Shown one piece after another: positions 74 to 59,046 of a stretch of DNA of 64,000 bases. The translations under genes and the position numbers were made by a program. Each line of letters starts with the position of its first letter. The stretch's first letter is position 1. The stretch lies in sequence record PP400777, one strand, 5' to 3'. The notes under the pieces were generated by a model, which saw only the letters and a list, made by a program, of their open reading frames with translations, had not been told where the DNA came from and did not search any database. The DNA is from Escherichia phage JM10.

Positions 74-91
74 GGGAGACTCCGGTCTCCC
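74..91. terminator. GC-rich hairpin terminator (GGGAGAC-TCCG-GTCTCCC), likely bidirectional
   Basis: Perfect 7-bp inverted repeat with 4-nt loop between convergent genes, T-rich flank. Confidence 0.55.
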
Positions 92-101
92 ATTCTTGTT
101 T

Positions 102-761
102 CTATAGCTTAAAACAATCATCGCGTTCATTAATCCAATTTCTTATAGTTTTTGCGGATACGTTAAAGAATTCGGCAGCGTAATCGTAGTGGTTAAATTC
201 ATGGCCTTTAATAGAAATATCCACAAATACAAATTTCTTACCTTTATTAGAATTCTTTCTAATTTTTGCTTTATGCTCTTCTGATAGTTTTCTACCTTTA
301 AGATGAGAATCTCTATTTTTATAAAACTTTTTATTTGCTATAGATTTGTTTTCTCGATGTTCTTTAGATTCTTTAGAACCTAATTTCTTTTTAGATATTT
401 TGGCCCGAACTTCTTCAGTCATACCAGCTTTTGTCTTTTCGGATAACATCTCACGATACCCAGGTTCCTGTAAAGCTACTATAACAGGATTACCCTTGCC
501 GCCTAAGGCTGCATTATAAGTATCTGTTCTCATGACAAAAGCCTCGTCAACTAGTTCGGCTTCCTTAGCATACATCTCTTCAGATGTTTCGAAATTGAAA
601 AGGATTTCCTTTTTAAAATTCTCTAAGCCGTATTTCTTTATGGATTTTACTATGTTAACCCCGGAACCCATATAAGAATCGTTAACATCTGTAGTGGCAT
701 GGGCTCCAACATAAATCTTGTTATTAATGAGATTGGTTATTTTGTAAATTAAATAATTCAT
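102..761 (-). CDS. segD: GIY-YIG homing endonuclease, SegD-like
   Basis: 219-aa ORF; N-terminal YLIYKITNLINNKIYVGAHATTD matches the GIY-YIG module; lies between gene 23 end and gene 24 as segD does in T4. Confidence 0.6.
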   Translation of the reverse strand: MNYLIYKITNLINNKIYVGAHATTDVNDSYMGSGVNIVKSIKKYGLENFKKEILFNFETSEEMYAKEAELVDEAFVMRTDTYNAALGGKGNPVIVALQEPGYREMLSEKTKAGMTEEVRAKISKKKLGSKESKEHRENKSIANKKFYKNRDSHLKGRKLSEEHKAKIRKNSNKGKKFVFVDISIKGHEFNHYDYAAEFFNVSAKTIRNWINERDDCFKL

Positions 762-22532: not shown

Positions 22533-22898
22533 TTAGATATCGAATTCGTTAAGAACTACATCAAAGATTGCTTCGAGATGTTCAGGTTTAGCTCGGTTAC
22601 TCAGGATATGACGAATCCAAGTTTTAACCAGAAGTTTACGATTAACACCGTTCCAGCAAGGATGAGTACCTAAATCACGTTGACGGAAATCGTCATCTAA
22701 TGCAATTTTGAAGTTGGAACCTTCCATCGTGATTGAAACCGTGATACCATTTTCAAAGCGCATATAAACGTAATTAGGAGTCATGCACTGTTCGATTTCG
22801 CACACTGTGCCGTTGTTGTGTTTCCACAGGCAAATAACTTCAGAAGAACCTGGGATACCGTTAGAAACATATTTACGTTCGAAGTTGATGTAGTTCAT
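22533..22898 (-). CDS. hypothetical protein (30.7-like)
   Basis: 121-aa ORF; synteny. Confidence 0.45.
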   Translation of the reverse strand: MNYINFERKYVSNGIPGSSEVICLWKHNNGTVCEIEQCMTPNYVYMRFENGITVSITMEGSNFKIALDDDFRQRDLGTHPCWNGVNRKLLVKTWIRHILSNRAKPEHLEAIFDVVLNEFDI

Positions 22899-22939
22899 TT
22901 TATTCTCCAGTTTGTTTTCGTATTATTTGGTACAGGTCT

Positions 22940-22968
22940 ATAATAACACATCCTACAGGAGAGTAAAC
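22940..22968 (-). promoter_or_regulatory. early promoter GTTTAC-N17-TATTAT
   Basis: Minus strand reads GTTTAC tctcctgtaggatgtgt TATTAT upstream of the 30.7-like ORF. Confidence 0.5.
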
Positions 22969-23004
22969 ATCTTTTTTAACTTTTTCTGCCCTAAACGCAC
23001 AAAA

Positions 23005-23022
23005 GGGAGACTTCGGTCTCCC
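23005..23022 (-). terminator. hairpin terminator GGGAGAC-CGAA-GUCUCCC then UUUUGUG
   Basis: Perfect 7-bp stem with tetraloop immediately after the stop of the 59-aa ORF. Confidence 0.65.
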
Positions 23023-23027
23023 TAAAA

Positions 23028-23207
23028 TTATGCAACAACCTTTCCAAAACGAGAAGCATCATCTCGAAGAACTGCACGTGCTCTGCGCATGATCTTCTCA
23101 ACTGTTTGATTAATACGAGAGTTCGACCCACGCTTGTATCCAGCGCGTTTAGAGGTACCATCAACTTTCTTTTCAACTGCTTTCTTTGCTTTAGCTTGTT
23201 TTGCCAT
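23028..23207 (-). CDS. small basic (Lys/Arg-rich) protein, 59 aa
   Basis: MAKQAKAKKAVEKKV...; ends 5 nt before the terminator hairpin; preferred over the overlapping 61-aa ORF in the track, which reads through the hairpin. Confidence 0.45.
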   Translation of the reverse strand: MAKQAKAKKAVEKKVDGTSKRAGYKRGSNSRINQTVEKIMRRARAVLRDDASRFGKVVA

Positions 23208-24473: not shown

Positions 24474-25044
24474 AAAAGTTTCGGATTTGTTCCCAATTCA
24501 GAGAACGAAGATTATTACGAGAGTACTGAATTACTTCAATACCAGCTTGTTTAAGAATGTCTGCCCAATTTTCAGGAGATCTGTCATATAATTCTGCGTA
24601 TACAACCTTTTTAATACCTGACTGTGTAATAGCTTTAGTGCAATCAGGACATGGAGAAAGCGTCGTATATAACGTAGCACCTTCAATAGAATTACCTTTA
24701 CGAGCTGCAAACAAAATGGCATTCAATTCAGCATGGATTTCGTTATTAGCAGACCATGCACTATGAGCGGCCCGATGTTCTTTAGCCAAAACAAAATTAT
24801 CCACCCGTCCAAATGCTGTAGTGCCTTCTTTATGTCCAGCAACGATGACCGGGCTTGGTTTATTCTTCAACCAACCATTTTCGTATGCGTGTTCGCAACA
24901 GTTAACGCCACCTGCAGGTGAACCATTATATCCAGTAGAGATAATGCGTCCATCTTTTTCAATGACGGCACCAACTTTCCATGAACAACATTTTGATTCT
25001 TGAGAAATCAGATATGCAATCTGAAGGTATGTGCTAGCTTTCAT
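24463..25044 (-). CDS. cd: dCMP deaminase
   Basis: 193 aa; zinc-binding deaminase motifs (H-A-E and PCxxC: SPCPDCTKAI); size matches T4 Cd. Confidence 0.9.
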   Translation of the reverse strand: MKASTYLQIAYLISQESKCCSWKVGAVIEKDGRIISTGYNGSPAGGVNCCEHAYENGWLKNKPSPVIVAGHKEGTTAFGRVDNFVLAKEHRAAHSAWSANNEIHAELNAILFAARKGNSIEGATLYTTLSPCPDCTKAITQSGIKKVVYAELYDRSPENWADILKQAGIEVIQYSRNNLRSLNWEQIRNFCGE

Positions 25045-26036
25045 TATTGAACCTTATTAATATAAGTTAACAGCTCTTTAGTTTGTTCCCAACTGATGCA
25101 CGCATCGGTAACGGAAACGCCATAGGACATATTATCAGAAATTTTTTGATTTCCTTCATGTAGGAATGATTCTATCATAATTCCTTTGACCAAATCATTA
25201 GCTGCTAAATTTTTACCAATACCAATTTGATTGCTATAATGCCCAGCAGCGTTTGCATGGCTACAGTCAACCATTACATAATGATTCAGACCTACTGCAC
25301 TTGCTTTGTTAGAAGCTTCTTGAATATCAGAAGAATGATAGTTCGGGCCGTTGGTCCCGCCACGCAATACGATATGCGTATTCTGATTACCTTCAGCTTC
25401 AACAATGCCTACAGTACCATCGACGTCCATACCCATATACCGATGAGGCCAGGCGGCACTATACATCGCGTCTGTAGCTACTTTAATAGAACCATTGGTT
25501 GCGTTCTTGAAGCCTACGCACATCGGTAGACCTGAAGCAATTTCACGATGTGTCTGACTTTCAGTCGTACGGGCGCCAATAGCAACCCATGAGAAAATAC
25601 CAGAAAGATACTTAATCGTGAATGGGTCTAATACTTCAGTTGCTAATGGAAGTCCCATACGTAGAAGTTTACGACACAATGTTCGTGCAACTATAAGACC
25701 GTGGTTCATATCAAAACTTCCGTCAAGATATGGATCATTTACAAGACCTTTCCAACCTACGGTAGTTCGAGGCTTTTCAAAATAAACGCGCATCACTAAC
25801 AGAACATTAGGAAGACGAGTTTGAAGTTCAGCCAGACGTTTGCCGTATTCAACAGCAGCAATAGGGTCATGAATTGAACAAGGACCTACAACAATAAGTT
25901 TGCGTGGGTCTTCACCGTTCATAATCGAATTAACTTGTTCGCGATGAGAAGCCACTTGTGATGCGTAAGCTTCCGACAAAGGAATAATCTCAGCCAGTTC
26001 TTTTGGAGAAATAAGTTTTCCGACGACAGGTAACAT
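25044..26036 (-). CDS. 3-deoxy-D-arabino-heptulosonate-7-phosphate (DAHP) synthase, class I (AroG/AroF/AroH-like)
   Basis: 330 aa; GPCSIHDP, KPRTTVGWKGLVNDP, IGARTTESQTHREIASGL, ILRGG, CSHAN, VTDACISW align with E. coli AroG active-site regions; stop codon overlaps the cd start. Confidence 0.85.
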   Translation of the reverse strand: MLPVVGKLISPKELAEIIPLSEAYASQVASHREQVNSIMNGEDPRKLIVVGPCSIHDPIAAVEYGKRLAELQTRLPNVLLVMRVYFEKPRTTVGWKGLVNDPYLDGSFDMNHGLIVARTLCRKLLRMGLPLATEVLDPFTIKYLSGIFSWVAIGARTTESQTHREIASGLPMCVGFKNATNGSIKVATDAMYSAAWPHRYMGMDVDGTVGIVEAEGNQNTHIVLRGGTNGPNYHSSDIQEASNKASAVGLNHYVMVDCSHANAAGHYSNQIGIGKNLAANDLVKGIMIESFLHEGNQKISDNMSYGVSVTDACISWEQTKELLTYINKVQ

Positions 26037-26156
26037 AACAATCCTTAGGAGATATAAACAGATTCTGATTCAACAATACCTTTAACCGGATTAGACAGGC
26101 TAAGTTGGTAGTGCTCAGATTTATGACCATTCTCGATAGTAATGAGATAACTCTCA

Positions 26157-26393
26157 TTATAGTGTTCCATATACTCGAGTTGCTTCAACTAAACCGTCAC
26201 TGCCTAATTTAAGGCTAGTAATCTGGTCACCATCTTTAGGATTAACGATTATGAGAAAAGAACGTGGAGATTCTTGAATAACTCGTAATGTTGCATCCTG
26301 GAAACGTTCAGACACTTTATTGATGAGTGCTTGAGCAAATTCTTTTACTTTAATCTGAAATTCGTGTACTGTAATTGGATTTTCACTTAGCAT
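26157..26393 (-). CDS. hypothetical protein
   Basis: 78-aa ORF downstream of an early promoter. Confidence 0.4.
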   Translation of the reverse strand: MLSENPITVHEFQIKVKEFAQALINKVSERFQDATLRVIQESPRSFLIIVNPKDGDQITSLKLGSDGLVEATRVYGTL

Positions 26394-26421
26394 TTCGATT
26401 TCCTCATTGTATTGGTAGAGT

Positions 26422-26451
26422 TATAGTATCACAACTCCACCATGTTGTAAA
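26422..26451 (-). promoter_or_regulatory. early promoter GTTTAC-N18-TACTAT
   Basis: Minus strand reads GTTTAC aacatggtggagttgtga TACTAT in the intergenic gap. Confidence 0.5.
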
Positions 26452-26454
26452 CCA

Positions 26455-26730
26455 TTAAATTGCTTTGCATTCAATTTTTTGTGTACCGAAATTGATATCG
26501 CATTGGATAACTAAATCACCGTCAAGATCAAATACCACTATGACGTGTGCAGACCCAGGGAGAAGAGTAATAGCAATAGAATCTACTTGGTCTGGGAGCA
26601 AAGCATTGAGTACATGAGTTAGTTGAGCATTAACTCTGAGTTCGGCTGCATTATCAAGCACTTCAAACATATTATTAGCAATAATCTGACTGAAGACTAC
26701 CTTTACAATTTCAGAATAAGTTGGGAACAT
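26455..26730 (-). CDS. hypothetical protein
   Basis: 91-aa ORF; synteny with the T4 cd.x cluster. Confidence 0.4.
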   Translation of the reverse strand: MFPTYSEIVKVVFSQIIANNMFEVLDNAAELRVNAQLTHVLNALLPDQVDSIAITLLPGSAHVIVVFDLDGDLVIQCDINFGTQKIECKAI

Positions 26731-26737
26731 AATTACC

Positions 26738-26962
26738 TCAGTGCACAGTATTTACTTTAACTCGAACAACAAATTGCTCGGTCGGTTCACCGACGGGAAC
26801 AAACTCTACATAATATTCACCTTTGTAACTAGTATTCAGATCATTACGAATTCCTGCGAGTTTGTTGATTAATGTAGGACTCATATTAAGTCCCACTAGT
26901 TTACGAAGCATTTTGTATGCTTCATCTTCGATTTCATGATGTTTATCGTACATAGTTTTCAT
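26738..26962 (-). CDS. hypothetical protein
   Basis: 74-aa ORF. Confidence 0.4.
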   Translation of the reverse strand: MKTMYDKHHEIEDEAYKMLRKLVGLNMSPTLINKLAGIRNDLNTSYKGEYYVEFVPVGEPTEQFVVRVKVNTVH

Positions 26963-27133
26963 TTAACCATTCAATTGCCTGGTCGACGTTATCAAATATA
27001 CCGCCGTCCAAACGTTCTTCATGCTCATAGTCCAGCACATCAATACCGAACTGCCCATTTACTAAAGGCCAGGCTACAAACAAATATTCTTTATGCTGTT
27101 CGATGGCCTCAATCACTTCATATAATCGTTTCA

Positions 27134-27134
<1 letters not shown>
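26943..27134 (-). CDS. hypothetical protein
   Basis: 63-aa ORF abutting the pseT stop. Confidence 0.4.
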
Positions 27135-28220
<1,086 letters not shown>

Positions 28221-28221
<1 letters not shown>

Positions 28222-28520
28222 TATTTTATTCCTAAGAAAGTTTCAAGAATACGAATGTTATGCTCGCGCCGGTCTTTATTAATTTCAGCAACGTTTTTAT
28301 TAATTGACGTACTTCTAACGTTTGAAGAAATAAATTTAATCATATGACTTTTGAGTTGTTGCAAATCCAACCCTTTTTCTTTAGCAGCTTTACGAAGAGC
28401 TTTACCTGCTTCATCTAGTGCCTTTGCTGCATCTTTGTCATAATTGACAAGTGACATTCCATGGCAGATATCAATATACTCATCAGACCGTTTGATGTAA
28501 TTCTCTAGTAACGTTTTCAT
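28221..28520 (-). CDS. hypothetical protein
   Basis: 99-aa ORF directly downstream of an early promoter. Confidence 0.45.
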
Positions 28521-28548
28521 TTAGATTTCCTCAATTATCCATAGGAGC

Positions 28549-28578
28549 ATTATACTCTGCTCCCGAGAGTTTGTAAAC
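28549..28578 (-). promoter_or_regulatory. early promoter GTTTAC-N18-TATAAT with a palindrome spanning the -10
   Basis: Minus strand reads GTTTAC aaactctcgggagcagag TATAAT; GGAGCA/TGCTCC inverted repeat flanks the -10. Confidence 0.6.
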
Positions 28579-28802
28579 TATTTTACTAAAGATTCAATAT
28601 ACTCATGAAGAGCTTTAGTCGCTACTGCCCACTTATTCTGATATTCATTTTTCAGATTAGCACGAGACTGAACTAACAAGCGGTCATTAGTCGGAGGCAA
28701 AGATTCTAATCGTTGAATCTGGCGCCCATAAATCATAGCCGCCATTTCAGATTCATAGATAAGCCCTTTAATGTATTCATGCTGTTCTTTAGTCATTGGC
28801 AT
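28578..28802 (-). CDS. hypothetical protein
   Basis: 74-aa ORF. Confidence 0.4.
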   Translation of the reverse strand: MPMTKEQHEYIKGLIYESEMAAMIYGRQIQRLESLPPTNDRLLVQSRANLKNEYQNKWAVATKALHEYIESLVK

Positions 28803-29083
28803 TTTTCCTCTTTTAAACCACTACGATAATAACATAACATAGTCTTCTGGTCATGTACATATCTTTTTACGTCGTTTAACCAGATACGAAATTCTTGAGA
28901 GTCTTCAAATGGCATTCCAACCCATGGATTACCATCAATAACCTTTACTTGCCATTTCTGGTTATATTCAACAATAGATTCAGGCCATGGCGGATGTAAA
29001 GTTTCTTTAGGGCTTAAGGGCACATCCTGGGCACATCCAGCCAAAATGCCAATAGATAATACAACTGCGGTTAATTTAATCAT
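28793..29083 (-). CDS. predicted lipoprotein
   Basis: 96 aa; N-terminal signal peptide with lipobox (MIKLTAVVLSIGILAGC). Confidence 0.5.
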   Translation of the reverse strand: MIKLTAVVLSIGILAGCAQDVPLSPKETLHPPWPESIVEYNQKWQVKVIDGNPWVGMPFEDSQEFRIWLNDVKRYVHDQKTMLCYYRSGLKEEKCQ

Positions 29084-29436
29084 TCTGAGAGCTTCCTGAG
29101 GTCTTCTGCAAAGGAATCGAAGGACCTGTTGATTTGTTTTTCGACCAATCCTGGTTTACTTGCCACCACGTTCTTCTTCTTCGAATCCTTACGGAGCTTT
29201 TCATTTTCGGCCTTAAGTTGGTCAACTAAAACACGGTTCTTATACGTCATTTCTTCGATTGACTGATATTGAACCTTGAAGTCGTCTAATACTTTAGCAT
29301 TGTTTTTAGCGGTCTCTTTGACAGAAGCTAATTCAGTATTCAACGAATCAACTTTGTTGTTTAAGACAACTATTGTTACCGTAGAAACTAGAGCAAAAGC
29401 TGCTACTATAGCGTAAATAGGATTTACTTTAAGCAT
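29080..29436 (-). CDS. predicted membrane-anchored coiled-coil protein
   Basis: 118 aa; N-terminal hydrophobic helix (IYAIVAAFALVSTVTIVVL) followed by a charged, heptad-like region. Confidence 0.45.
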   Translation of the reverse strand: MLKVNPIYAIVAAFALVSTVTIVVLNNKVDSLNTELASVKETAKNNAKVLDDFKVQYQSIEEMTYKNRVLVDQLKAENEKLRKDSKKKNVVASKPGLVEKQINRSFDSFAEDLRKLSE

Positions 29437-29924
29437 GTTTTAATAATCTCAATGATTTCATCTCGGGATAATCCATTGATAAGAACGGTTTTCAAACCAT
29501 CACACTGGATTTTGTACGATTCAAACAATACACACAACTCTTCTGCTGTATGATATGGACTTGAAATTCCGAGACGGTTGAATTTGTCGGTAAGAGGGTC
29601 GCAAATAATATAGAATTTGATACCTGCGATATGTACGTTTGGTTGACTAATATTAATGAACACATTAGCGTCATATTTAGTCAAATTGTTTTGAAGAAAT
29701 TCTACCATAGCATTAACTGCTTCTGGCAACGCTTCGCGTTTCTCTTCAGCGTATCGGGTTGAATACTCTTTTTGTTTTACTTTCTTTTTAAGATTTTTGG
29801 CCAGTGTAACACGTAGGTCAGTAAGATAACCAACTGGACGTCCTTTCTTAAAGACCCGGATTCCGTCAGTTGTATCTCCAAAAGCGGTTACGACCATATC
29901 GTTAGTAATCAATTGCATATTCAT
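29424..29924 (-). CDS. alc: probable Alc (transcription terminator for cytosine-containing DNA)
   Basis: Position between rnlA and pseT as in T4; start at MNMQ (GAGGAG SD, 166 aa, close to the 167 aa of T4 Alc) preferred over the ORF-track start; an early promoter lies upstream. Confidence 0.5.
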   Translation of the reverse strand: MNMQLITNDMVVTAFGDTTDGIRVFKKGRPVGYLTDLRVTLAKNLKKKVKQKEYSTRYAEEKREALPEAVNAMVEFLQNNLTKYDANVFINISQPNVHIAGIKFYIICDPLTDKFNRLGISSPYHTAEELCVLFESYKIQCDGLKTVLINGLSRDEIIEIIKTCLK

Positions 29925-29954
29925 AATTTTCTCCTCGTGTTGTTGATAAAAGCC

Positions 29955-29984
29955 ATAGTAACACCTTCCTTGGTGTTTGTAAAC
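29955..29984 (-). promoter_or_regulatory. early promoter GTTTAC-N18-TACTAT
   Basis: Minus strand reads GTTTAC aaacaccaaggaaggtgt TACTAT between the rnlA stop and the alc start. Confidence 0.5.
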
Positions 29985-29986
29985 CA

Positions 29987-31120
<1,134 letters not shown>

Positions 31121-31137
31121 TCAGTTAGTTTTTTTAA

Positions 31138-31167
31138 ATTGTACCACAATCCTTGTGGTATGTAAAC
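31138..31167 (-). promoter_or_regulatory. early promoter GTTTAC-N18-TACAAT with spacer palindrome CCACAAGGATTGTGG
   Basis: Minus strand reads GTTTAC ataccacaaggattgtgg TACAAT; the -35 hexamer overlaps the denA stop. Confidence 0.5.
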
Positions 31168-31577
31168 TACTTTTTCTTATGTTGGATATTCCAAGGCGGG
31201 TTGAACTTTTTGATAAAAAGCGGTTCTTCAAGGTCCATTGTTGCGATGGTCATTGAACCAAGTTCGTTGGTGACTGAAAGGTCAAAACATTGGCGGGCCC
31301 AGAATTCAACCTTTTTGCCTTGCATTAAGGCATCCAAAATCATAAGTGATTTTCTTGAATCTGAAGTCTGGTCTTTTCGATTTATGGCTGTTCGATAATA
31401 GTTAATGCGTTTCTTTAAATTCTTGGTTTTACCAATATACACAAGTTCGTCATCTATAGCAATAGCATATATGACATTTTTCTTATTAGGGACATCAACT
31501 GTTTTAATTGTTGCATCTTCTAATAGCTCCAATTCTGTATATTTAATAAAGGAATATTCGGCGGCGATATCTTTCAT
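31167..31577 (-). CDS. denA: endonuclease II (GIY-YIG-like)
   Basis: 136 aa; near-identical to recalled T4 DenA (...VIYAIAIDDELVYIGKTKNLKKRINYYR...). Confidence 0.92.
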   Translation of the reverse strand: MKDIAAEYSFIKYTELELLEDATIKTVDVPNKKNVIYAIAIDDELVYIGKTKNLKKRINYYRTAINRKDQTSDSRKSLMILDALMQGKKVEFWARQCFDLSVTNELGSMTIATMDLEEPLFIKKFNPPWNIQHKKK

Positions 31578-31585
31578 AATAAAGT

Positions 31586-31599
31586 GGGACCGAAGTCCC
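31586..31599 (-). terminator. hairpin GGGAC-UUCG-GUCCC between nrdB and denA
   Basis: 5-bp GC stem with UUCG tetraloop; weak U-tract. Confidence 0.4.
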
Positions 31600-31603
31600 G
31601 TCC

Positions 31604-32106
31604 TTAGAAATATTTTTTGTATGAATTGATTACATTTTGGTCTACATCATTATCAATTTGTGCGACAAGATAAGAACTGATTTCAACTTCTTGTGGGGCT
31701 GCTTGAACCAAATCAGAGTTCAAATACTCACGAATCCATGGAATAGGATGACGAGTTGATACGTCTTTAAGAGGACATGGCAGACCACAACTACGCATAC
31801 GAGACACGGTAAGATAATCCACAAATTCACTTAGGATTTTAACATTTAGACCTGGAAGAGCACCATCTTTAAACAAGTGTTCAGCCCATTCTTTTTCTTG
31901 AGCGTTAACTTCCATGAAAATATCAACTGCTTCTTGTTCACACTCTTGAGCAATTTTGACCCATTCATCACCGTCTTCGCCATCTTGTAAAGCACGAATA
32001 ATATATTGAGTGCCCTTGAGGTGGAGCTGTTCATCACGAGCAATGAACTTCATAATCTTGGCATTACCTTCCATAATTTCCATGTTCTTATGGAAGTTAA
32101 AGGTAC
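31604..32106 (-). CDS. nrdB: ribonucleotide reductase beta subunit NrdB, exon 2
   Basis: Exon 2 encodes (C)TFNFHKNMEIMEGNAK... through the C-terminus; frame joins exon 1 across the intron to give about 392 aa. Confidence 0.85.
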
Positions 32107-33197
32107 CGTTATGTTCGATTGAGCTCGCTAATTCTCAACCCGTTCTCTTATGAACTGCTACATATTACTATGCAGACCAGACTATATCACAATCCCAGAG
32201 GGATTCTCCCCATTTCGAGTCGCTTGACCCTACGTCCGAAGACTAGTCGTTGAACCTTGCTTTGCAATTGTCGCCGTGCCATCGTTTATATGTTGATGGT
32301 GATAAATCTTTCTTATCACAATATGGACAATTCAATTGAATTCTATTTGGATTTAATTTACATCTGTCATTATGTTTTAGATAAAATCCAGGACCTTTAC
32401 CAATGTGACCGCAGAAATCACATGTGATTTCTTTTTGTGCAGGATGGGTTCCGTTCTTAACCATTTCTAATGTTTTTGCTGATGTTCTTTTCTTATGGTC
32501 TTCTGATAAGAAATGATGTGAACCGTCATTTACCCGTTTTGATTGAGTTTCTGACTGCATTTTACCACCGCAAAATACATGAGTACCTTCTTTTATAGCT
32601 GCAATATTGCGTTCTTTAACTTTTGCAATATGCTCAGCTTGTTGAAAATTATGTATACCTAATGCAACTCTATTTAAATTAGATTTACGCTGTATTTCAC
32701 CGTCTAAAAGATGAAATGTACCATTTTCTATCTTAGATTTAATAGAGGCAATATTTTTAGCTCGTACTTCAGGGATATTAAAAATCTGGATTTCTCTAGA
32801 TTTTGCGGCTTTAGAAGCTAATTCAGAAATTTCTTCAGGAGAATATTTCATTCTAAGCTTTATAGCATGACAAGCCTGGTAATCTTTTTGAGCTAAATGT
32901 ATATCATAATGTTCCTGTATAGAAAGGCACATCAAATTATCTAAATCATTATTTTCACGGTTACCGTCTTTATGATGGATTTCGTATGTTCTTCCATCAG
33001 AATCTTTAGGTATAGGTCCGTTAGCATCTATCCAAATTTTTCTATAGTTCAATTGTGCATCCTCTTAAAAGTATAATCATATTTATATTATACTAATTAA
33101 AGGTGCAAGCAAAACCTTGGCTGCTAGTTTTCCTATAAAGGACTTTCCAGCAATTAAAGGAGTTTTCGATAAACGTTACCGTTTAAAGGCGCATTTT
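32107..33197 (-). mobile_element. group I intron in nrdB (about 1091 nt) carrying I-TevIII
   Basis: Exon 1 ORF terminates in-frame directly after ...RFYVSFA while conserved NrdB sequence resumes about 1.1 kb downstream; exon 1 ends in U and the intron ends in G; an HNH endonuclease ORF lies inside. Confidence 0.8.
32243..33052 (-). CDS. I-TevIII: HNH homing endonuclease I-TevIII (full length, 269 aa)
   Basis: HNH motif EIHHKDGNRENNDLDNL and C-terminal Cys/His zinc-finger-like region; matches the intact I-TevIII recalled from phage RB3 rather than the truncated T4 form. Confidence 0.8.
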   Translation of the reverse strand: MNYRKIWIDANGPIPKDSDGRTYEIHHKDGNRENNDLDNLMCLSIQEHYDIHLAQKDYQACHAIKLRMKYSPEEISELASKAAKSREIQIFNIPEVRAKNIASIKSKIENGTFHLLDGEIQRKSNLNRVALGIHNFQQAEHIAKVKERNIAAIKEGTHVFCGGKMQSETQSKRVNDGSHHFLSEDHKKRTSAKTLEMVKNGTHPAQKEITCDFCGHIGKGPGFYLKHNDRCKLNPNRIQLNCPYCDKKDLSPSTYKRWHGDNCKARFND

Positions 33198-33873
33198 ACG
33201 CAAAAGATACATAAAAACGAATAGCTTCTAAGGCATTAATAACGTGCAAACAGAGGTAAAGAGATTTCATTAAAGCACGTTTAGCTTCGGCTTCTTGTTT
33301 AATAGCTCGGTTTAAACGAAAGTCGGCATCAGGAGATTCTTTAGCTAGTTCTACAAATTCTTTAGCATTTTCCCAATGACGAGTCTTGACTAGAACATCA
33401 TCGTAATATTTACCTATTGATTCAGCTCGTTTCATGATTGCTTCGTCTAATACAATCTCATCAAATACCTTAGATGGATCTGTATAAAGATTTCGCATAA
33501 TATGAGTATATGAACGAGAGTGAATAGTTTCACTGAAAGTCCATGTAGCAACCCATGTATCTAATGAAGGGTCTGAAAGCAATGACATAAGTACCGCAGA
33601 TGGTGCTCTACCTTGGATAGAATCTAATAATGATTGATACTTAAGGTTGTTGGTAAAGATGTCCTGTTGGAACTGTGGAAGCTTATTGAACTGCGCAGAG
33701 TCCAACATCAAGTTTACCTCTTCTGGACGCCAGAAAAACGACAATTGCTTTTCAATAAGTTCTTCAAAAACTTTATGACGCTGAATATCATACCGTGCGA
33801 GGCCAAGACCAGAACCAAAGAACATCGGTTCATTCAAAACATCGACTTGTTGTGTGTTAAAAACTGTACTCAT
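33198..33873 (-). CDS. nrdB: ribonucleotide reductase beta subunit NrdB, exon 1
   Basis: N-terminal 225 codons near-identical to recalled T4 NrdB (MSTVFNT...ALEAIRFYVSFA). Confidence 0.85.
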
Positions 33874-36525: not shown

Positions 36526-36837
36526 TTATACCGCCATTTTAGCTTTGATAGCTGGATGAGATTCGTAATTTTTAAGAACGAAATCAGAATGTGTCATCGT
36601 TCCAGTAACCCAGTCCATTTGGATTTTTGTAGGCCAATTCTCAAAATTACTAGGCCAATTAATTTCAAGAGAACACAACTCTTTAGGTTCACGACGAAGA
36701 ACTTCTTTGCATTGTTCTACATGATTGCTGTAGATATGTGTGTTGCCGCCTGAGAACACTAAATCACCTGGGATAAGGTTACACATCTTCGCTACAATAT
36801 GCGTCAAGGCAGCGTACGAGGCAATGTTGAACGGTAG
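36526..36837 (-). CDS. td: thymidylate synthase, exon 2
   Basis: Encodes LPFNIASYAALTHIVAKMCNLIPGDL... to the C-terminus; joins exon 1 to give 286 aa, as in T4 Td. Confidence 0.9.
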   Translation of the reverse strand, partial: LPFNIASYAALTHIVAKMCNLIPGDLVFSGGNTHIYSNHVEQCKEVLRREPKELCSLEINWPSNFENWPTKIQMDWVTGTMTHSDFVLKNYESHPAIKAKMAV

Positions 36838-37853
36838 CATTATGTTCAGATAAGGTCGTTAATCTTATCCCGGAATTATATCCAGCTGCATGTCACCATG
36901 CAGAGCAGACTATATCTCCAACTTGTTAAAGCAAGTTGTCTATCGTTTCGAGTCACTTGACCCTACTCCCTAAAGGGATAGTCGTTAGGCATTTATGTAG
37001 AACCAATTCCACTTATCAGATTTTACACGGTAAGTAACTAATCCTGATGAAATTTCAAAATGTCTAGCCGCATCGGCTGCACATTCAAAAATAATCCCAT
37101 CGCATGAAATCTTTTTGATGTTAGCTGGCTTTTTGCCTTTCATCTTTTCAGATAGTTTAGTTTTAGTTTTTTCTGAATGTTTGTGATTAAAGAACGGGTT
37201 ATTTTCACCTGAACGTTTTCGGCACTTTCCACAAGTATCGGCCGAAGATGGTATGCGAACACCGCATTTACAAAACTTGTGGTTTTCTGGATTCCATCGG
37301 CCATTTTTACTTCCGTGTTTACCATAAAGAGCTTTCCGACCGTCAGGACCAAGCTTAAGCATCTTAGCTTTAACAGTTTCAGCTCGTTTCTTAGCAATTT
37401 CTTCTTTTAATGGATGATTTGAAAGCACATCGCCAAAAGACGCATCAGCAATATTATATCCATTAATTTTAGAATTTAGCTCTTTAATCCAAAAATTTTC
37501 TCGTTCAATAATCAAATCTTTCTCATATGTAATTTCTTCCAGTACAGAGCATTCAAAAACATTACCATGTTTATTAAAAGACCTTTGAAATTTTATAGAA
37601 GAGTGAACACCGTTTTCAAGGTCTTTAAAATGTCTCTTCCATCTTTTCTCAAAATCTTTAGCACTTCCAACATACACTTTACCGTTTAAAGTGTTTTTAA
37701 TCTGATAAATTCCGCTTTTCATAAACACCTCTTTTTATATAGAAGTATTTATTAAAGGGTAGTCCTACAATTTAGCACGGGATTGTCTACTAGAGAGGTC
37801 CCCCGTTTAGATAGATTACAAGTATAAGTCACCTTATACCTAGGCCTAAATTA
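36838..37853 (-). mobile_element. group I intron in td (1016 nt) carrying I-TevI
   Basis: Intron 5' end TAATTTAGGCCTAGGTATAAGGTGACTTATACTTGTAATC... and 3' end ...GAACATAATG closely match the recalled T4 td intron; exon 1 ends in U, intron ends in G. Confidence 0.9.
36985..37728 (-). CDS. I-TevI: GIY-YIG homing endonuclease I-TevI
   Basis: 247-aa ORF; GIYQIKNTLNGKVYVGSAKDFEKRWKRH GIY-YIG module and C-terminal DNA-binding region; near-identical to recalled T4 I-TevI. Confidence 0.92.
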   Translation of the reverse strand: MFMKSGIYQIKNTLNGKVYVGSAKDFEKRWKRHFKDLENGVHSSIKFQRSFNKHGNVFECSVLEEITYEKDLIIERENFWIKELNSKINGYNIADASFGDVLSNHPLKEEIAKKRAETVKAKMLKLGPDGRKALYGKHGSKNGRWNPENHKFCKCGVRIPSSADTCGKCRKRSGENNPFFNHKHSEKTKTKLSEKMKGKKPANIKKISCDGIIFECAADAARHFEISSGLVTYRVKSDKWNWFYINA

Positions 37854-39237
<1,384 letters not shown>

Positions 39238-39271
39238 TTTATTCTCCTCTTCACTTTTATTTTATAGGGCT

Positions 39272-39301
39272 ACTATAACATAGCCCTATCTTGTTATAAA
39301 C
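39272..39301 (-). promoter_or_regulatory. early promoter-like GTTTAT-N18-TATAGT with palindrome ATAGGGCTA/TAGCCCTAT
   Basis: Minus strand reads GTTTAT aacaagatagggctatgt TATAGT; 9-bp inverted repeat spans the spacer and -10. Confidence 0.45.
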
Positions 39302-39693
39302 TACTTTTTAAAGGTTTTTTGCAAAAGTTTGATGATTTCGTCGACGTTGGTTTCATCTACGATACAATTGATTTTTGTTACACCTAAAGCTATACCTTCG
39401 TTAGTAGATTGAGGCTTTACTAAATCTACCTCAATAAAGTATTTGAACTCGTCAGGATAAATCTCAAAATAAGTTTCAATTTCACCACCGGCAGAACATA
39501 CAGTACCATCTTCCATAGTTACACTTACTACGTTTGACGTATCGCTATCATAATCAGGTTCCATTCCGTTTACAACAAAACTAGGCCCGTGGAGTTCAAT
39601 CAATTTTAACATCTTAGCGTTATTATGTGGTGCTTCTTGAACAAAGTCATCTTTAAATAAAGGGTTAATGATATAAGATTTTCCGATTTCCAT
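39301..39693 (-). CDS. hypothetical protein (frd.2/frd.3 position)
   Basis: 130-aa ORF downstream of an early promoter. Confidence 0.45.
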   Translation of the reverse strand: MEIGKSYIINPLFKDDFVQEAPHNNAKMLKLIELHGPSFVVNGMEPDYDSDTSNVVSVTMEDGTVCSAGGEIETYFEIYPDEFKYFIEVDLVKPQSTNEGIALGVTKINCIVDETNVDEIIKLLQKTFKK

Positions 39694-39722
39694 TTTGATT
39701 TCCTCATGTTGTTGATAGGTTT

Positions 39723-48103: not shown

Positions 48104-48121
48104 GGGAGACTTCGGTCTCCC
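48104..48121 (+). terminator. hairpin GGGAGAC-UUCG-GUCUCCC after gene 35
   Basis: Perfect 7-bp stem with tetraloop followed by AUUUUUG; identical 18-mer to the element at 23005. Confidence 0.6.
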
Positions 48122-48128
48122 ATTTTTG

Positions 48129-48136
48129 TATAAATA
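48129..48136 (+). promoter_or_regulatory. late promoter TATAAATA for genes 36-37
   Basis: Exact TATAAATA 25 nt upstream of the gene 36 ATG. Confidence 0.65.
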
Positions 48137-48831: not shown

Positions 48832-51800
48832 ATGGCTACTTTAAAACAAATACAATTTAAAAGAAGCAAAACCGCAGGTGCACGTCCTGCTGCTTCAGTA
48901 TTAGCCGAAGGTGAATTGGCTATAAACTTAAAAGATAGAACAATTTTTACTAAAGATGATACAGGAAATATCATTGATCTAGGTATTGCTAAAGGCGGTC
49001 AAATTGATGGAAATGTAACTATTGATGGAACTTTACGCGTCAATGGACCAATAAACAACTTTGGAAATTTTTCTACAAGTGGTACTATTACGGCAAGTAA
49101 TATTGTTTCTGCTACAGTATTCAGATCAACATCCGGTTCATTTTATACAAGAGCAATAAATGATACTGCAAAGGCCCATCTTTGGTTTGAAAATACAAAT
49201 GGCTCAGAACGTGGCGTTTTATATTCAAACCCGCAGTCTGAAAATGAAGGCGTAATTACAATGCGTGTTCGTCAAGGAACCGCTGCGGAAGCTCAAAATT
49301 CAGAATTTCATTTCATTTCTACTGATGGCGGTATCTTCCAGGCACGCAAATTAACTGCTTTAACTTCTATTAGTACACCAACTATTAGTGTTAATTTAAT
49401 TAATCATGATTCTAAATCATTTGGACAATATGATTCACAATCTTTGGTTAACTATGTTTATCCTGGAACTGGTGAAACGAATGGTGTAAACTATCTTCGT
49501 AAAGTTTGCGCTACGTCCGGTGGTACAATTTATCATGAAATTGTTACTGCACAAAAAGGCCTGTCTGATGAAGTTTCTTGGTGGACTGGTAATACACCAT
49601 TATTTAAACTATATGGTATTCGTAGCGACGGCAGACTGATTATCCGCAATAGCCTGGCCATCGGTACTGTGACGGGAGGGTTTCCGTCAAGCGATTATGG
49701 CAATGTTGAGGCACTAGGAAATATATTTCTTGCTTTAGGTGATAACGGGACAGGTTTACGCTATCGAAAAACCGGGGTATTTGATTTCGTTGGTTCTGGA
49801 CTATCTGTCGCATCTATTACACCTGACAGTTTCCGTAGTACTCGTAAAGGTATATTTGGTCGTTCCGAGGACCAAGGCGCAACTTGGATAATGCCTGGGA
49901 CCAACGCCGCGTTTTTAACGGTTCAAACACAGGCTGATGAAAACACTGCTGGAGACGGTCAAACCCATATTGGATATAATTCTGGCGGGAAAATGTCCCA
50001 CTATTTCCGTGGTAAAGGCCAAACTAATATTAATACTCAAGAAGGCATGGAAGTTAACCCGGGTATTTTGAAATTGGTAACTGGCTCTAATAACGTACAG
50101 TTTTATGCTAACGGAACAGTATCTTCAATACAAAGAATTAAATTTGATAATGGATTAGTTCTTACTGGTGCTAGACCCGATGGTATTCAACTTGATGCTC
50201 CTACAACAACAGATGGCACTAAAACTATATTGTGGGCCGGCGGTACTCGTGAGGGTCAGAATAAAAGTTATGTATCTATTAAAGCATGGGGTAATTCATT
50301 TAACGCATCTGGCGATCGTAATCGTGAAACGGTTTTTGAAGTAGCTGATGGACAAGGATATTATTTCTACGCTCAACGTACTAATCCTGCGTCAGGTCAA
50401 ACAGTAGGTCCGGTTAACTTTAAATTTAACGGAACTGTCGAAACAGGCCATATCATAGGCCTTGGTAATATAAGTGCCTCCGGTACAGGTTCTTTTGGTG
50501 GCAATGTTACTATGTCTAACGGTTTGTTTGTCCAAGGTGGTTCTTCTATTACTGGACAAGTTAAAATCGGCGGAACAGCTGATGCATTAAGAATTTGGAA
50601 TGCTGAATACGGGGCTATTTTCCGTCGTTCTGAAGATAAACTTTATATTATTCCAACTCCACAAAATGCTGGTGAATCAGGTGGTATTTCTAATTTACGT
50701 CCATTTACCATGACTCTTAGTACTGGTAAAATGGAATTTAAACATGATGTTGGACTTGGTGATAACGGCTCCGGTGGAAGCATATTATTTGTAGATAACA
50801 CTAACAAAGCCACTACTAATAACGGTCGTTTATACGTTAATATGACAAGTGATGCTATAGTGCTTAATGCTCCTACACAAGAAACATCTAACTTTATCCA
50901 AGGACGCAAAGCTAACGTCACTAAATGGTATGTTGGTATTGGCGACAGTGGTGATTCTGTTCGTATGCATAGCTATGCATATTCCCACGGCTTGGTATTA
51001 AGTGCTAACTCCGTTGATATTACTAAACCGTTAAAAGTTGGTAATGCTCAATTCGGTACTGATGGTAATATCACCGGTGGTTCTGGTAACTTTGCCAACT
51101 TGAACACCACAATAAATAACCTTAAGACGGATATCGTCTCAAGTTATCCAATTGGCGCTCCGATTCCTTGGCCAACGGATACTCCTCCTGACGGTTACGC
51201 TATTATGGAAGGTCAGACTTTTGATAAGTCTGCATACCCAAAATTGGCTATGGCTTACCCATCTGGCGCTCTGCCTGATATGCGTGGTCAAACTATCAAG
51301 GGTAAACCATCTGGGCGTGCTGTATTAAGTACAGAAGCCGATGGTGTTAAGTCACATAGCCATAGTGCAAGTGCATCAAGCACAGATTTGGGTACTAAAA
51401 ACACATCAAGTTTTGATTATGGTACTAAAACCTCTTCAAGCTTTGATTATGGTACGAAGACTAGCAATACAACAGGTAACCATAACCATACAGTAAGCGG
51501 TACTACTGGTGCAGCAGGTAACCACCAGCACTCACAAACCGGTCCAAGGGGTCCTAATAATCAACCAACAGGAATATTTCCTAATGGATCTACTCTAATT
51601 AGTGGAACCCAGGTTGTTGGTTTTGGCCTAAGCAACGGTGTCGTGCCTGGTTCAAGCCAATATATTGCAAAGTCATCGACAGAAGGTAACCATACACACT
51701 CTTGGTCTGGTACTACTAGCTCTACGGGTAACCATGCTCATACTGTAGGTATTGGTGCTCACACTCACACGGTAGGTATTGGTGCTCATTCTCATACTGT

Positions 51801-51903
51801 TGCAATTGGTTCCCATGGACATACAATAACTGTAAATGCCACAGGAAATACAGAAAACACAGTTAAAAACGTTGCTTTTAACTATATCGTTCGTTTAGCA
51901 TAA
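48832..51903 (+). CDS. 37: long tail fibre distal subunit gp37 (receptor-binding tip)
   Basis: 1023 aa; C-terminal His-x-His repeats ([39 protein letters not shown]), the T4 gp37 iron-binding needle signature; ends ...NYIVRLA. Confidence 0.93.
51391..51462 (+). repeat. tandem 30-bp repeat (about 2.4 copies) inside the gene 37 tip region
   Basis: ggtactaaaaacacatcaagttttgattat / ggtactaaaacctcttcaagctttgattat / ggtacgaagact, encoding [24 protein letters not shown]. Confidence 0.8.
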
Positions 51904-58222: not shown

Positions 58223-58255
58223 GCTAATTTCCTCAATTGATTAATGTTTTTGTAA

Positions 58256-58285
58256 TCCATGAGAGCATTATACTCTGCTCTCAAG
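58256..58285 (-). promoter_or_regulatory. early promoter-like element (TTGTAC-N18-TATAAT) with palindrome, paralogue of the element at 28549
   Basis: About 85% identical over about 45 bp to 28533-28590; GAGAGCA/TGCTCTC inverted repeat flanks the -10. Confidence 0.5.
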
Positions 58286-58298
58286 AGTTTGTACAATT

Positions 58299-58520
58299 TT
58301 ATTCGGCCATATCAGAACGTTCAAAAAGCTCTTCAACAGTTAAACATTCAGTGTCATCTTCAATAAAGAATCGAGTCCAACACGTTGGGGCGATACAGTT
58401 ATGAGTTTGTCCGGCGATAGAAGCTACACGAATAAGCTGCTGACCATTATTCAGAACAAATTTTTCACCAATTTCAACATCTTTAAAAAGCTTAGCCATT
58501 TTGTATTCCTCATGTTTCAA
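58299..58520 (-). CDS. hypothetical protein (ndd.x position)
   Basis: 73-aa ORF. Confidence 0.4.
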   Translation of the reverse strand: MKHEEYKMAKLFKDVEIGEKFVLNNGQQLIRVASIAGQTHNCIAPTCWTRFFIEDDTECLTVEELFERSDMAE

Positions 58521-58569
58521 TAGGACTACTATATCATAGTCCTACTTAGTTGTAAACACTTTTATGAAA

Positions 58570-59046
58570 TTAAAGATGAAGATACCACCCGTTGTAGTTG
58601 CTCTTGCGGATGATTTTCTTTAGGTCTTCATGGTCTCCCACGAACTTTATAGAATAAGAGAAGACGTCAGGTGAGGTTTCTTTGACATTCAATATAATAA
58701 TACAGTCAGCGACTCGATGATTAAGGAAGGGCCCTATGTTGATTCCGTTGCCACCCGGATAATCACCACTGTATCCTGTGGTAACCGAAATCCATTTAGA
58801 ATCTATCTGGTGTGTCTTGACTTCTACACGAATTCCACAATACTTGGGATGGGCTAACACGTCCCATGCATACGTGTACGGGTCTTCTACGTCTTCAATA
58901 CCTTTGTTAACATATCCGTCTAGCCAATTTGCTACTACATACTCTGCAAAGACCGCAACCTTACAACGTCGAACAACGTCTTCTTTTATTTGACCTGGAT
59001 CTTGTTTCAACGAGTACCGAGCAGTATCAGCAATCTTCACCTTCAT
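58570..59046 (-). CDS. hypothetical protein at the T4 denB position
   Basis: ORF track 58570..59190; internal start MKVKIAD (158 aa) avoids overlap with the upstream ORF; identity as endonuclease IV not verified. Confidence 0.4.
   Translation of the reverse strand: MKVKIADTARYSLKQDPGQIKEDVVRRCKVAVFAEYVVANWLDGYVNKGIEDVEDPYTYAWDVLAHPKYCGIRVEVKTHQIDSKWISVTTGYSGDYPGGNGINIGPFLNHRVADCIIILNVKETSPDVFSYSIKFVGDHEDLKKIIRKSNYNGWYLHL

Follow-up and report, generated by a model that had tools for sequence, protein, structure and literature searches.

Promoter-early stem-loops (PeSLs), first described in the coliphages RB49 and phi1 (Arbiol et al. 2010, PMC2839356) and subsequently extended to T4/PST and KVP40/nt-1 (Comeau et al. 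2014, PMC4122927), combine, under the published model, two functions, a terminator that serves the upstream gene and a promoter that serves the downstream one (PMC2839356). One of these stem-loops lowered the expression of a downstream lacZ gene about as much as rrnB T1, and when cassettes recombine with one another, ORFans are shuffled and mini-circles arise (PMC2839356); the promoter consensus of the extended set is TTTACW N17 TAYWAT (PMC4122927). Here we examine two near-duplicate elements, P1 (28521-28580) and P2 (58223-58301), on the minus strand of a 64,000-nucleotide stretch of Escherichia phage JM10 (sequence record PP400777; hereafter, the window), and find that both are, in all likelihood, PeSL-type cassettes in which a hairpin is maintained by selection. 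The type of element is already known, and the RB69-like lineage is a new member: RB69 is absent from both PeSL papers (PMC2839356, PMC4122927). A search of the source of the RB69 promoter list (Nolan et al. 2006, PMC1524935) for the terms 'palindrom', 'stem-loop' and 'inverted repeat' found none of them, and hairpins in early promoters are not discussed in the T4 transcription review.

By sequence, the window is that of an RB69-like (Mosigvirus) T4-type phage: positions 27000-30000 match RB69 at 96.7% identity, and with other Mosigvirus phages the identity reaches 98.3%. Because the early genes of the window are carried by the minus strand, P1 and P2 are read as reverse complements. In this orientation, P1 reads TAG TTTACA aactctcg GGAGCA gagtataa TGCTCC tatggat, with GAGG and ATG further downstream, and P2 reads TGTACA aactct TGAGAGCA gagtataa TGCTCTCA tggat, again with GAGG and ATG downstream. 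Both have the anatomy of a sigma-70-type promoter, with the -35 hexamer TTTACA in P1 (28572-28577; consensus score 11/12, the top site in 26000-32000) and TGTACA in P2 (58290-58295), a 17-bp spacer, and the -10 hexamer TATAAT (28549-28554 and 58267-58272, respectively). The stop codon of the upstream gene lies directly 5' of the -35 hexamer within an A/T-rich stretch (gtaaaaTAGTTTACA in P1, with the TAG of pseT.1 at 28580-28578; gaaTAAaatTGTACA in P2, with the TAA of ndd.1 at 58301-58299), and the Shine-Dalgarno sequence GAGG (28532-28529 and 58234-58231) is located 8-9 nucleotides (nt) 5' of the ATG at 28520 and 58222. The confirmed RB69 orthologues of the two elements are on the published list of early promoters (Pe:136687 and Pe:165022). 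Given this fit of the hexamers and spacer and the presence of the orthologues on the list, P1 and P2 are predicted to be active early promoters, as proposed in the first-pass annotation.

The inverted repeat that the same annotation had placed around the -10 hexamer is readily recognized in both elements. In P1, the left arm (G)GGAGCA (28558-28564, approximately -22 to -16), the outermost G of which would form a G.U pair in RNA, faces the right arm TGCTCC(T) (28543-28549, -7 to -1), whereas in P2, the arms are TGAGAGCA (58276-58283) and TGCTCTCA (58260-58267, -7 to +1). The stem consists of 6 bp and one G.U pair in P1 and of 8 bp in P2, and in both cases encloses the -10 box in an 8-nt loop, gagtataa, that is common to the two elements; the final T of the -10 hexamer doubles as the first base of the right arm, which ends at about -1/+1. 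The predicted folding energies of the segments are -11.4 kcal/mol for P1 and -12.6 kcal/mol for P2, compared to about -4 kcal/mol for shuffled sequences. By the rule of 7 nt from the -10 box, transcription would start at the A at 28542 in P1 and at the A at 58260 in P2. The repeat finder aligned the two elements as a 46-nt pair (28537-28582 and 58255-58300; family D8) with 85% identity, in agreement with the value of about 85% in the first-pass annotation. Of the 7 differences between P1 and P2, 4 fall within the stem, and all 4 keep or lengthen the pairing (from P1 to P2, G:C to A:T, G.T to G:C, and C/A to T:A), such that the earlier description of the changes as compensatory stands.

Every sequence-level feature of PeSLs is present in P1 and P2, namely, the promoter, the upstream stop codon, the stem-loop, the Shine-Dalgarno sequence with the start codon, membership in a repeat family, and association with novel open reading frames (ORFs) and junctions. 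As in RB49 and phi1, an A/T-rich upstream stop is followed by a sigma-70 promoter, with a stem-loop lying between the -35 box and the -10 box or over the -10, and then by the Shine-Dalgarno sequence and the start codon; the stems include G-T pairs, and the elements are genomic repeats that adjoin novel ORFs and are found at insertion, deletion and replacement junctions of close relatives. However, the stems in RB49 are mostly G runs paired with C runs, and the promoters are near-perfect TTGACA/TATAAT, whereas the cassettes of the window have the T4-type -35 GTTTAC, stems of mixed sequence (GGAGCA, TAGGNCTA) and a right arm that reuses a conserved block, 'AGNCCTAT', at positions -6 to +3. The PeSLs of T4/PST and KVP40/nt-1 share the promoter consensus given above and also occur at gene-exchange junctions, including the ndd.4/.5 region; their stem motif is given as AGNA-loop-TCNT (PMC4122927). 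The stem-loops of PST lie just upstream of the promoter (legend to Fig. 3 in PMC4122927), in contrast to those of the window, which lie inside the promoter, across the -10. Furthermore, terminator and mini-circle activities have been shown for the RB49 and phi1 elements, whereas the match of the cassettes of the window is at the level of sequence.

Evidence that the stem is under selection comes from covariation. A search of IMG/VR for relatives of ndd yielded only 3 near-identical loci and was therefore replaced by pattern scans in which the stem was left free. The focal scan, for ACAAACT N9 AGAGTATAAT N8 GGAT, covered IMG/VR and contigs from metagenomes. Its pattern held flanks and loop fixed but left 7 of the 8 stem pairs free, and it recovered 17 distinct sequences, in which 97.8% of the stem cells are paired. 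Four of the 8 pairs are changed on both sides (G:C to A:U, G:C to C:G, C:G to U:A, and one pair that occurs as G.U, A:U or G:C). None of 500 shuffles reached the observed values, and when the partners were slid by 1-3 columns, pairing dropped to 37-54%. Among the seven inner pairs, the one-sided changes are all G.U or U.G, with zero A.C. A scan for a second subfamily, which includes two further promoters of the window (with 5' ends at 58557 and 39301) and in which four inner pairs were left free, gave a closely similar picture: 25 distinct sequences, 98.5% paired, with 16 double-change cells, again matched by 0 of 500 shuffles. Thus, the stem covaries in related phages, which was the check suggested along with the original claim of selection on the hairpin, and the conclusion that selection acts on the stem rather than on the sequence appears well supported by these alignments.

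The excess of secondary structure extends well beyond the two elements. When the -33 to +3 segments of 15 curated early promoters of the window were compared to shuffles, the combined probability for the folding energy was about 1e-9, and a perfect stem of at least 6 bp was found in 6 of the 15. As a set independent of our own choice, we used the 58 RB69 promoters predicted by Nolan et al. (PMC1524935, Additional file 3), 56 of which were readable. The mean folding energy of these 56 promoters is -7.8 kcal/mol, compared to -2.9 kcal/mol for shuffles (mean z of -2.5; t-test p = 7e-11), and hairpin stability is significant at p <= 0.01 in 21 of them. The resemblance between P1 and P2 likewise exceeds the background similarity of early promoters: across the 703 pairs of the 38 RB69 promoters with 17-bp spacers, the mean identity is 53% (standard deviation 11%), and the P1-P2 pair, at 83%, ranks 14th. 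By these identities, P1 and P2 form a true subfamily, one among several, with 2 copies in the window and 4 in RB69 (Pe:136687, 165022, 72069, 42515); several other subfamilies of RB69 promoters reach 85-98% identity.

Two observations bear on the molecule in which the hairpin forms and on the transcript that carries it. Among the 24 RB69 segments in which either strand folds at or below -9 kcal/mol, the sense RNA has the better folding energy in 19 (binomial p = 0.007; mean difference of -2.6 kcal/mol), with significance arising only after this symmetric restriction to structured segments. The G.U pairs of the sense strand become A.C mismatches in the antisense, and the bias favors a hairpin in the sense RNA over a symmetric site in double-stranded DNA or a cruciform. 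Because the predicted start site falls at the base of the right arm, the RNA initiated at the promoter itself would lack the left arm, so that the hairpin could form only in the read-through RNA of the upstream gene. The second observation follows from a prediction that was fixed before the data were inspected, namely, that promoters located after a canonical terminator need no hairpin. With the published TransTerm list for RB69, strong hairpins were found in 0 of the 8 promoters that have a terminator within 30 nt upstream, compared to 21 of the 48 others (Fisher one-sided p = 0.017; Mann-Whitney p = 0.01), and when the limit was set at 130 nt, the counts were 0 of 10 and 21 of 46 (p = 0.005). 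This complementarity fits a role of the hairpin at the end of the upstream transcript. Together with the sense-strand bias, it lends indirect support to the published PeSL model, which agrees with the suggestion of the first-pass annotation that such palindromes may double as upstream terminators and downstream promoters.

The cassettes also appear as seams between genes. The focal cassette is nearly unchanged in Dhakavirus and Gaprivervirus phages, whereas the neighboring genes differ: the same small upstream ORF and cassette are followed, depending on the phage, by a gene similar to RB69ORF231c, a 165-aa gene or a 178-aa gene, and elsewhere copies are found ahead of ndd and of three or more additional genes. 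Altogether, the same cassette is found 5' of at least 7 unrelated genes across Mosigvirus, Dhakavirus and Gaprivervirus. When the window is aligned with RB69, two RB69 genes, 30.8 and RB69ORF270c, have no counterpart in it; at each of the two junctions, the alignments on either side overlap, over 93 nt in the first case and 54 nt in the second, inside the duplicated cassettes Pe:131670/132117 and Pe:165283/165795 (window 22882-22975 and 58520-58574; RB69 131663-132017 and 165286-165744). The window likewise lacks RB69ORF245c; there, the overlap measures 25 nt and falls within the leader/Shine-Dalgarno region, near 39691-39716. The gene downstream of P1 is a 99-aa ORF, the homologue of RB69ORF231c, for which no Pfam family was found and which, in the pseT regions of T4-type phages, is either absent or present without the promoter; in Tequatrovirus e11/2 (NC_024125, 800-815), the ORF231c-like gene abuts pseT.1 with the stop/start overlap TAAATG and no promoter cassette, indicating that the gene and the cassette are separable. 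P2 precedes the conserved gene ndd (Pfam PF06591, E = 4e-89), so the link between cassettes and novel ORFs is not universal. In T4, the region upstream of ndd contains no early promoter, only an unrelated GGCCG...CGGCC hairpin, and P2 accordingly is not traceable to T4 by position. The lambdoid morons are similar in that they are small accessory genes with their own transcription signals, but those signals are neither the vehicle of mobility nor a conserved repeat family, whereas in the window, the promoter and the hairpin are fused into a repeat that itself is the recombination site.

Considered jointly, these lines of evidence suggest an account that we regard as somewhat better than an even bet in its entirety, namely, a PeSL cassette whose hairpin acts on read-through RNA and which serves as a recombination seam. 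Each cassette runs from the upstream stop codon through a strong sigma-70 promoter (T4-type -35, 17-bp spacer, TATAAT) and the Shine-Dalgarno sequence to the next start codon. Because the intergenic space is almost entirely promoter, the hairpin is built from free positions of the spacer, which provide the left arm, and from positions -7 to +1, which provide the right arm, and its loop contains the -10 box. This hairpin would fold in RNA that reads through from the upstream gene and would then mark or make the 3' end of the upstream transcript, so that read-through is attenuated; the 3' stem-loop might also shield the upstream message, and each cassette would be transcriptionally insulated. 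Two modes of action are conceivable: RNA polymerase could pause or be weakly released over the A/U-rich -10 to +10 hybrid, or the hairpin could become a protective 3' stem-loop after RNA processing. That the role of the hairpin is attenuation or 3'-end formation of read-through RNA we consider an even call. Finally, since the cassettes are repeats of about 45-60 bp, they act as sites of homologous recombination for the swap, loss and gain of genes.

Several observations weigh against this account. The promoter hairpins lack a U tract on their 3' side, where the sequences are UAUGGAUA, UGGAUUAC, AAAAUAAA and UUGAAACA, and the terminator consensus scan of 26000-32000 flagged none of them, so that under the standard model one would expect no more than weak intrinsic termination. 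The strong preference for the -10 box in the loop is not needed for a role in RNA only. Across all 56 RB69 promoters, the sense and antisense folding energies do not differ significantly (Wilcoxon p = 0.12), and two sequences of the second subfamily, L044 and L060, have three A.C-type mismatches between them. The exclusion test includes only 8 promoters, and descent within promoter subfamilies could partly explain its outcome. The indel junctions that distinguish the phage of the window from RB69 include neither P1 nor P2, and our literature search for maps of 3' ends or start sites in T4 or RB69 found nothing usable. On the grounds of the missing U tract and the negative scan, we rejected the classification of the hairpins as canonical intrinsic terminators. 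They resemble such terminators in forming a stable RNA hairpin soon after a stop codon, and are distributed complementarily to the predicted ones, but have a long, 8-nt loop and no U tract, whereas the canonical terminators of the phage itself consist of GGGAGACTTCGGTCTCCC followed by Ts. The latter belong to family D4, a hairpin of the form GGGAGAC(T/C)TCGGTCTCCC with a UUCG-type loop and then a T-rich sequence, present in three copies in the window (74-106, 23005-23037 and 48104-48136).

An explanation that also operates in RNA, and that we consider rather unlikely, is that the hairpin affects only RNA stability: polymerase would not be stopped, and endonucleolytic cleavage in the downstream leader would leave the stem-loop as the 3' end of the upstream mRNA, blocking 3'-to-5' exonucleases. 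It is well established that 3' stem-loops protect RNA against PNPase and RNase II. The absence of a U tract after any stem is in line with this possibility, the G.U covariation and the sense-strand bias would suit any role at the RNA level, and the exclusion by terminators is compatible with it as well, since the hairpin of a terminator would by itself protect the 3' end. However, inspection of the sequences showed no link between the presence of the hairpin and GGAG (RegB) motifs in the leaders downstream, and the PeSL stem-loop tested in RB49/phi1 work cut the expression of a downstream reporter (PMC2839356), which points to a block rather than to stabilization alone. Alternatively, the palindrome could function in DNA, either being extruded from the supercoiled injected DNA as a hairpin or cruciform that exposes the -10 box single-stranded and so aids open complex formation, or serving as a structure-specific target (for endonuclease VII or gp46/47) that creates recombination hot spots. 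Most of the strong stems hold the -10 box in the loop in a fixed register, with the right arm starting at -7, the cassettes are recombination junctions, and one crossover was mapped within the loop (Arbiol et al. 2010, PMC2839356), all of which would be expected if this were the case. Nevertheless, G.U pairs are common and the antisense strand, with its A.C mismatches, folds worse in 19 of the 24 structured segments, whereas a cruciform requires pairing in both strands; several stems lie wholly within the spacer (in the promoters with 5' ends at 31167 and 29984), so that the geometry with respect to RNA polymerase is not uniform; and the absence of hairpins from promoters located after terminators is not expected of a function intrinsic to the promoter. 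In addition, stems of 6-9 bp with 8-nt loops would be expected to extrude poorly, and we consider the DNA-level explanation improbable. The N4 virion RNA polymerase promoters provide a precedent for an inverted repeat that is integral to an early promoter, although there the hairpin, with a stem of 5-7 bp and a 3-nt loop, is extruded in DNA and read by a phage RNA polymerase, whereas the promoters of the window are of the sigma-70 type and the evidence favors an RNA hairpin. Still less probable, in our assessment, is a dual scenario suggested by the near-constant register (the -10 box in an 8-nt loop and the right arm at -7 to +1), whereby extrusion on the supercoiled injected genome would present a single-stranded -10 box to sigma-70 and the same sequence, once transcribed, would end the transcripts that come from upstream; if true, these would be structure-assisted promoters of the host polymerase, a sigma-70 counterpart of the N4 hairpin promoters.

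The remaining two explanations carry very low probability. One builds on the dimeric protein-binding site that the first-pass annotation had put forward as an alternative: the palindrome would be an operator, and a regulator of phage or host origin, bound there as a dimer, would cover the -10 box and turn early transcription off. A dyad centered on the -10 is the classic position of a repressor site, and T4-type phages do switch off early promoters, but the same genome contains many unrelated stems (GGAGCA, GAGAGCA, TAGGACTA, TAGGGCTA, GGTACAGG, GGTGGAGTT and others), with no half-site found in common among the hairpin promoters of one genome. The stems also covary freely between phages, the loop length ranges from 3 to 10 nt, the position of the stem is variable, and G.U pairs break the symmetry of the DNA; a dimeric regulator site is therefore not supported. 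The other is that the hairpins have no selected function and result from gene conversion between repeated promoters combined with one-step template switching in quasi-palindromes, a mutational correction route known in T4. The cassettes do recombine, as this scenario assumes, but about 98% pairing is held across several genera and among paralogues with 5-8 different stem sequences, and the folding energy in RB69 exceeds that of shuffles by 2.5 standard deviations genome-wide. There are also the strand bias and the non-random absence of hairpins next to terminators, and neutral generation of the palindromes predicts none of these observations.

Compared to P1 and P2, the other hairpin promoters of the window, all on the minus strand, illustrate how variable the placement of the stem can be. 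In the second subfamily, the cassette 5' of ndd.1 (58521-58557) consists of GTTTACA, the stem arm TAGGACTA (58544-58537), the loop tgatatag and the arm TAGTCCTA (58528-58521), and is a chimera of RB69 Pe:165795 in its 5' part and Pe:165283 in its 3' part. The other member (39264-39301) has GTTTATA, the arms ATAGGGCTA (39289-39281) and TAGCCCTAT (39272-39264), and the loop tgttatag, with a G:C pair in place of an A:T pair of the former. The early promoter of rnlA (31138-31167) carries its stem within the spacer (TACCACAA at 31160-31153, loop gga, TTGTGGTA at 31149-31142). Both palindromes listed in the first-pass annotation are thus present, at 31138-31167 inside the spacer and at 39272-39301 across the -10. 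The spacer also contains the stem of the early promoter at 29955-29984 (AACACC aaggaa GGTGTT; palindrome 29960-29977). An early promoter at 26413-26452 has a 13-pair stem with three G.U pairs that encloses part of the -10 (palindrome 26413-26442); its sense RNA has a folding energy of -18.3 kcal/mol, and its RB69 orthologue, Pe:134561, folds at -16.9 kcal/mol in the sense and -8.1 kcal/mol in the antisense strand.

Most early promoters, with or without a hairpin, share a block 3' of the -10, TA(G/A)NCCTATCAA, at approximately -6 to +6, which is seen in the window (for example, at 1090, 22968, 39751 and 55989) and in RB69. The hairpin-bearing promoters use this block as the right arm. The rnlA promoter of the window is homologous to the T4 promoter 5' of ndd.6, and the two have in common the spacer stem TACCAC...GTGGTA. 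In T4, the promoters of ndd.6 and motA are identical over about 35 nt from the -10 onwards; the motA promoter has a canonical terminator upstream and no spacer stem.

Some other features of the window were also noted. Relative to RB69, nrdB is split by about 1.1 kb (32106-33200, minus strand) containing a 269-aa HNH endonuclease ORF (32243-33052), the N-terminus of which presumably resembles I-TevIII. The Rfam model Intron_gpI matches this insert at 32158-32398 with 33.9 bits (E = 6e-6), below the gathering score of 50, which is why it was missed by the whole-window search at the gathering threshold, where no Rfam family had a match anywhere in the window. The td gene is likewise split, relative to RB69, by about 1.0 kb (36837-37855, minus strand), which codes for a 247-aa I-TevI-like GIY-YIG endonuclease (36985-37728; Pfam I-TevI DNA-binding, zinc-finger and GIY-YIG domains), and no Rfam group I intron match was found in this insert at E <= 0.01. 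Between cd and cd.2, a 1.1-kb segment that is not in RB69 (window 25047-26142 versus RB69 134236-134254) harbors a 330-aa ORF (25044-26036, minus strand) that belongs to Pfam family PF00793 (DAHP synthetase I; E = 7e-75), possibly an auxiliary metabolic gene. In the tail-fibre gene region, on the plus strand, there are tandem repeats at 51374-51433 (30 nt, 2 copies; family D13) and 51737-51817 (27 nt, 3 copies; family D6).

With the present analysis, the PeSL concept comes to include the lineages of RB69 (Mosigvirus), Dhakavirus and Gaprivervirus. The covariation of the stem, the sense-strand bias and the complementarity with canonical terminators appear to be additions to the original PeSL descriptions. 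About 40% of the early promoters in such phages overlap a structured RNA element, and terminator predictors that require a U tract miss hairpins of the PeSL type, which is relevant for annotation. For the biology of these phages, the results translate into a testable picture in which densely packed early genes would be insulated from one another, and the short promoter repeats provide the seams along which accessory genes are exchanged.

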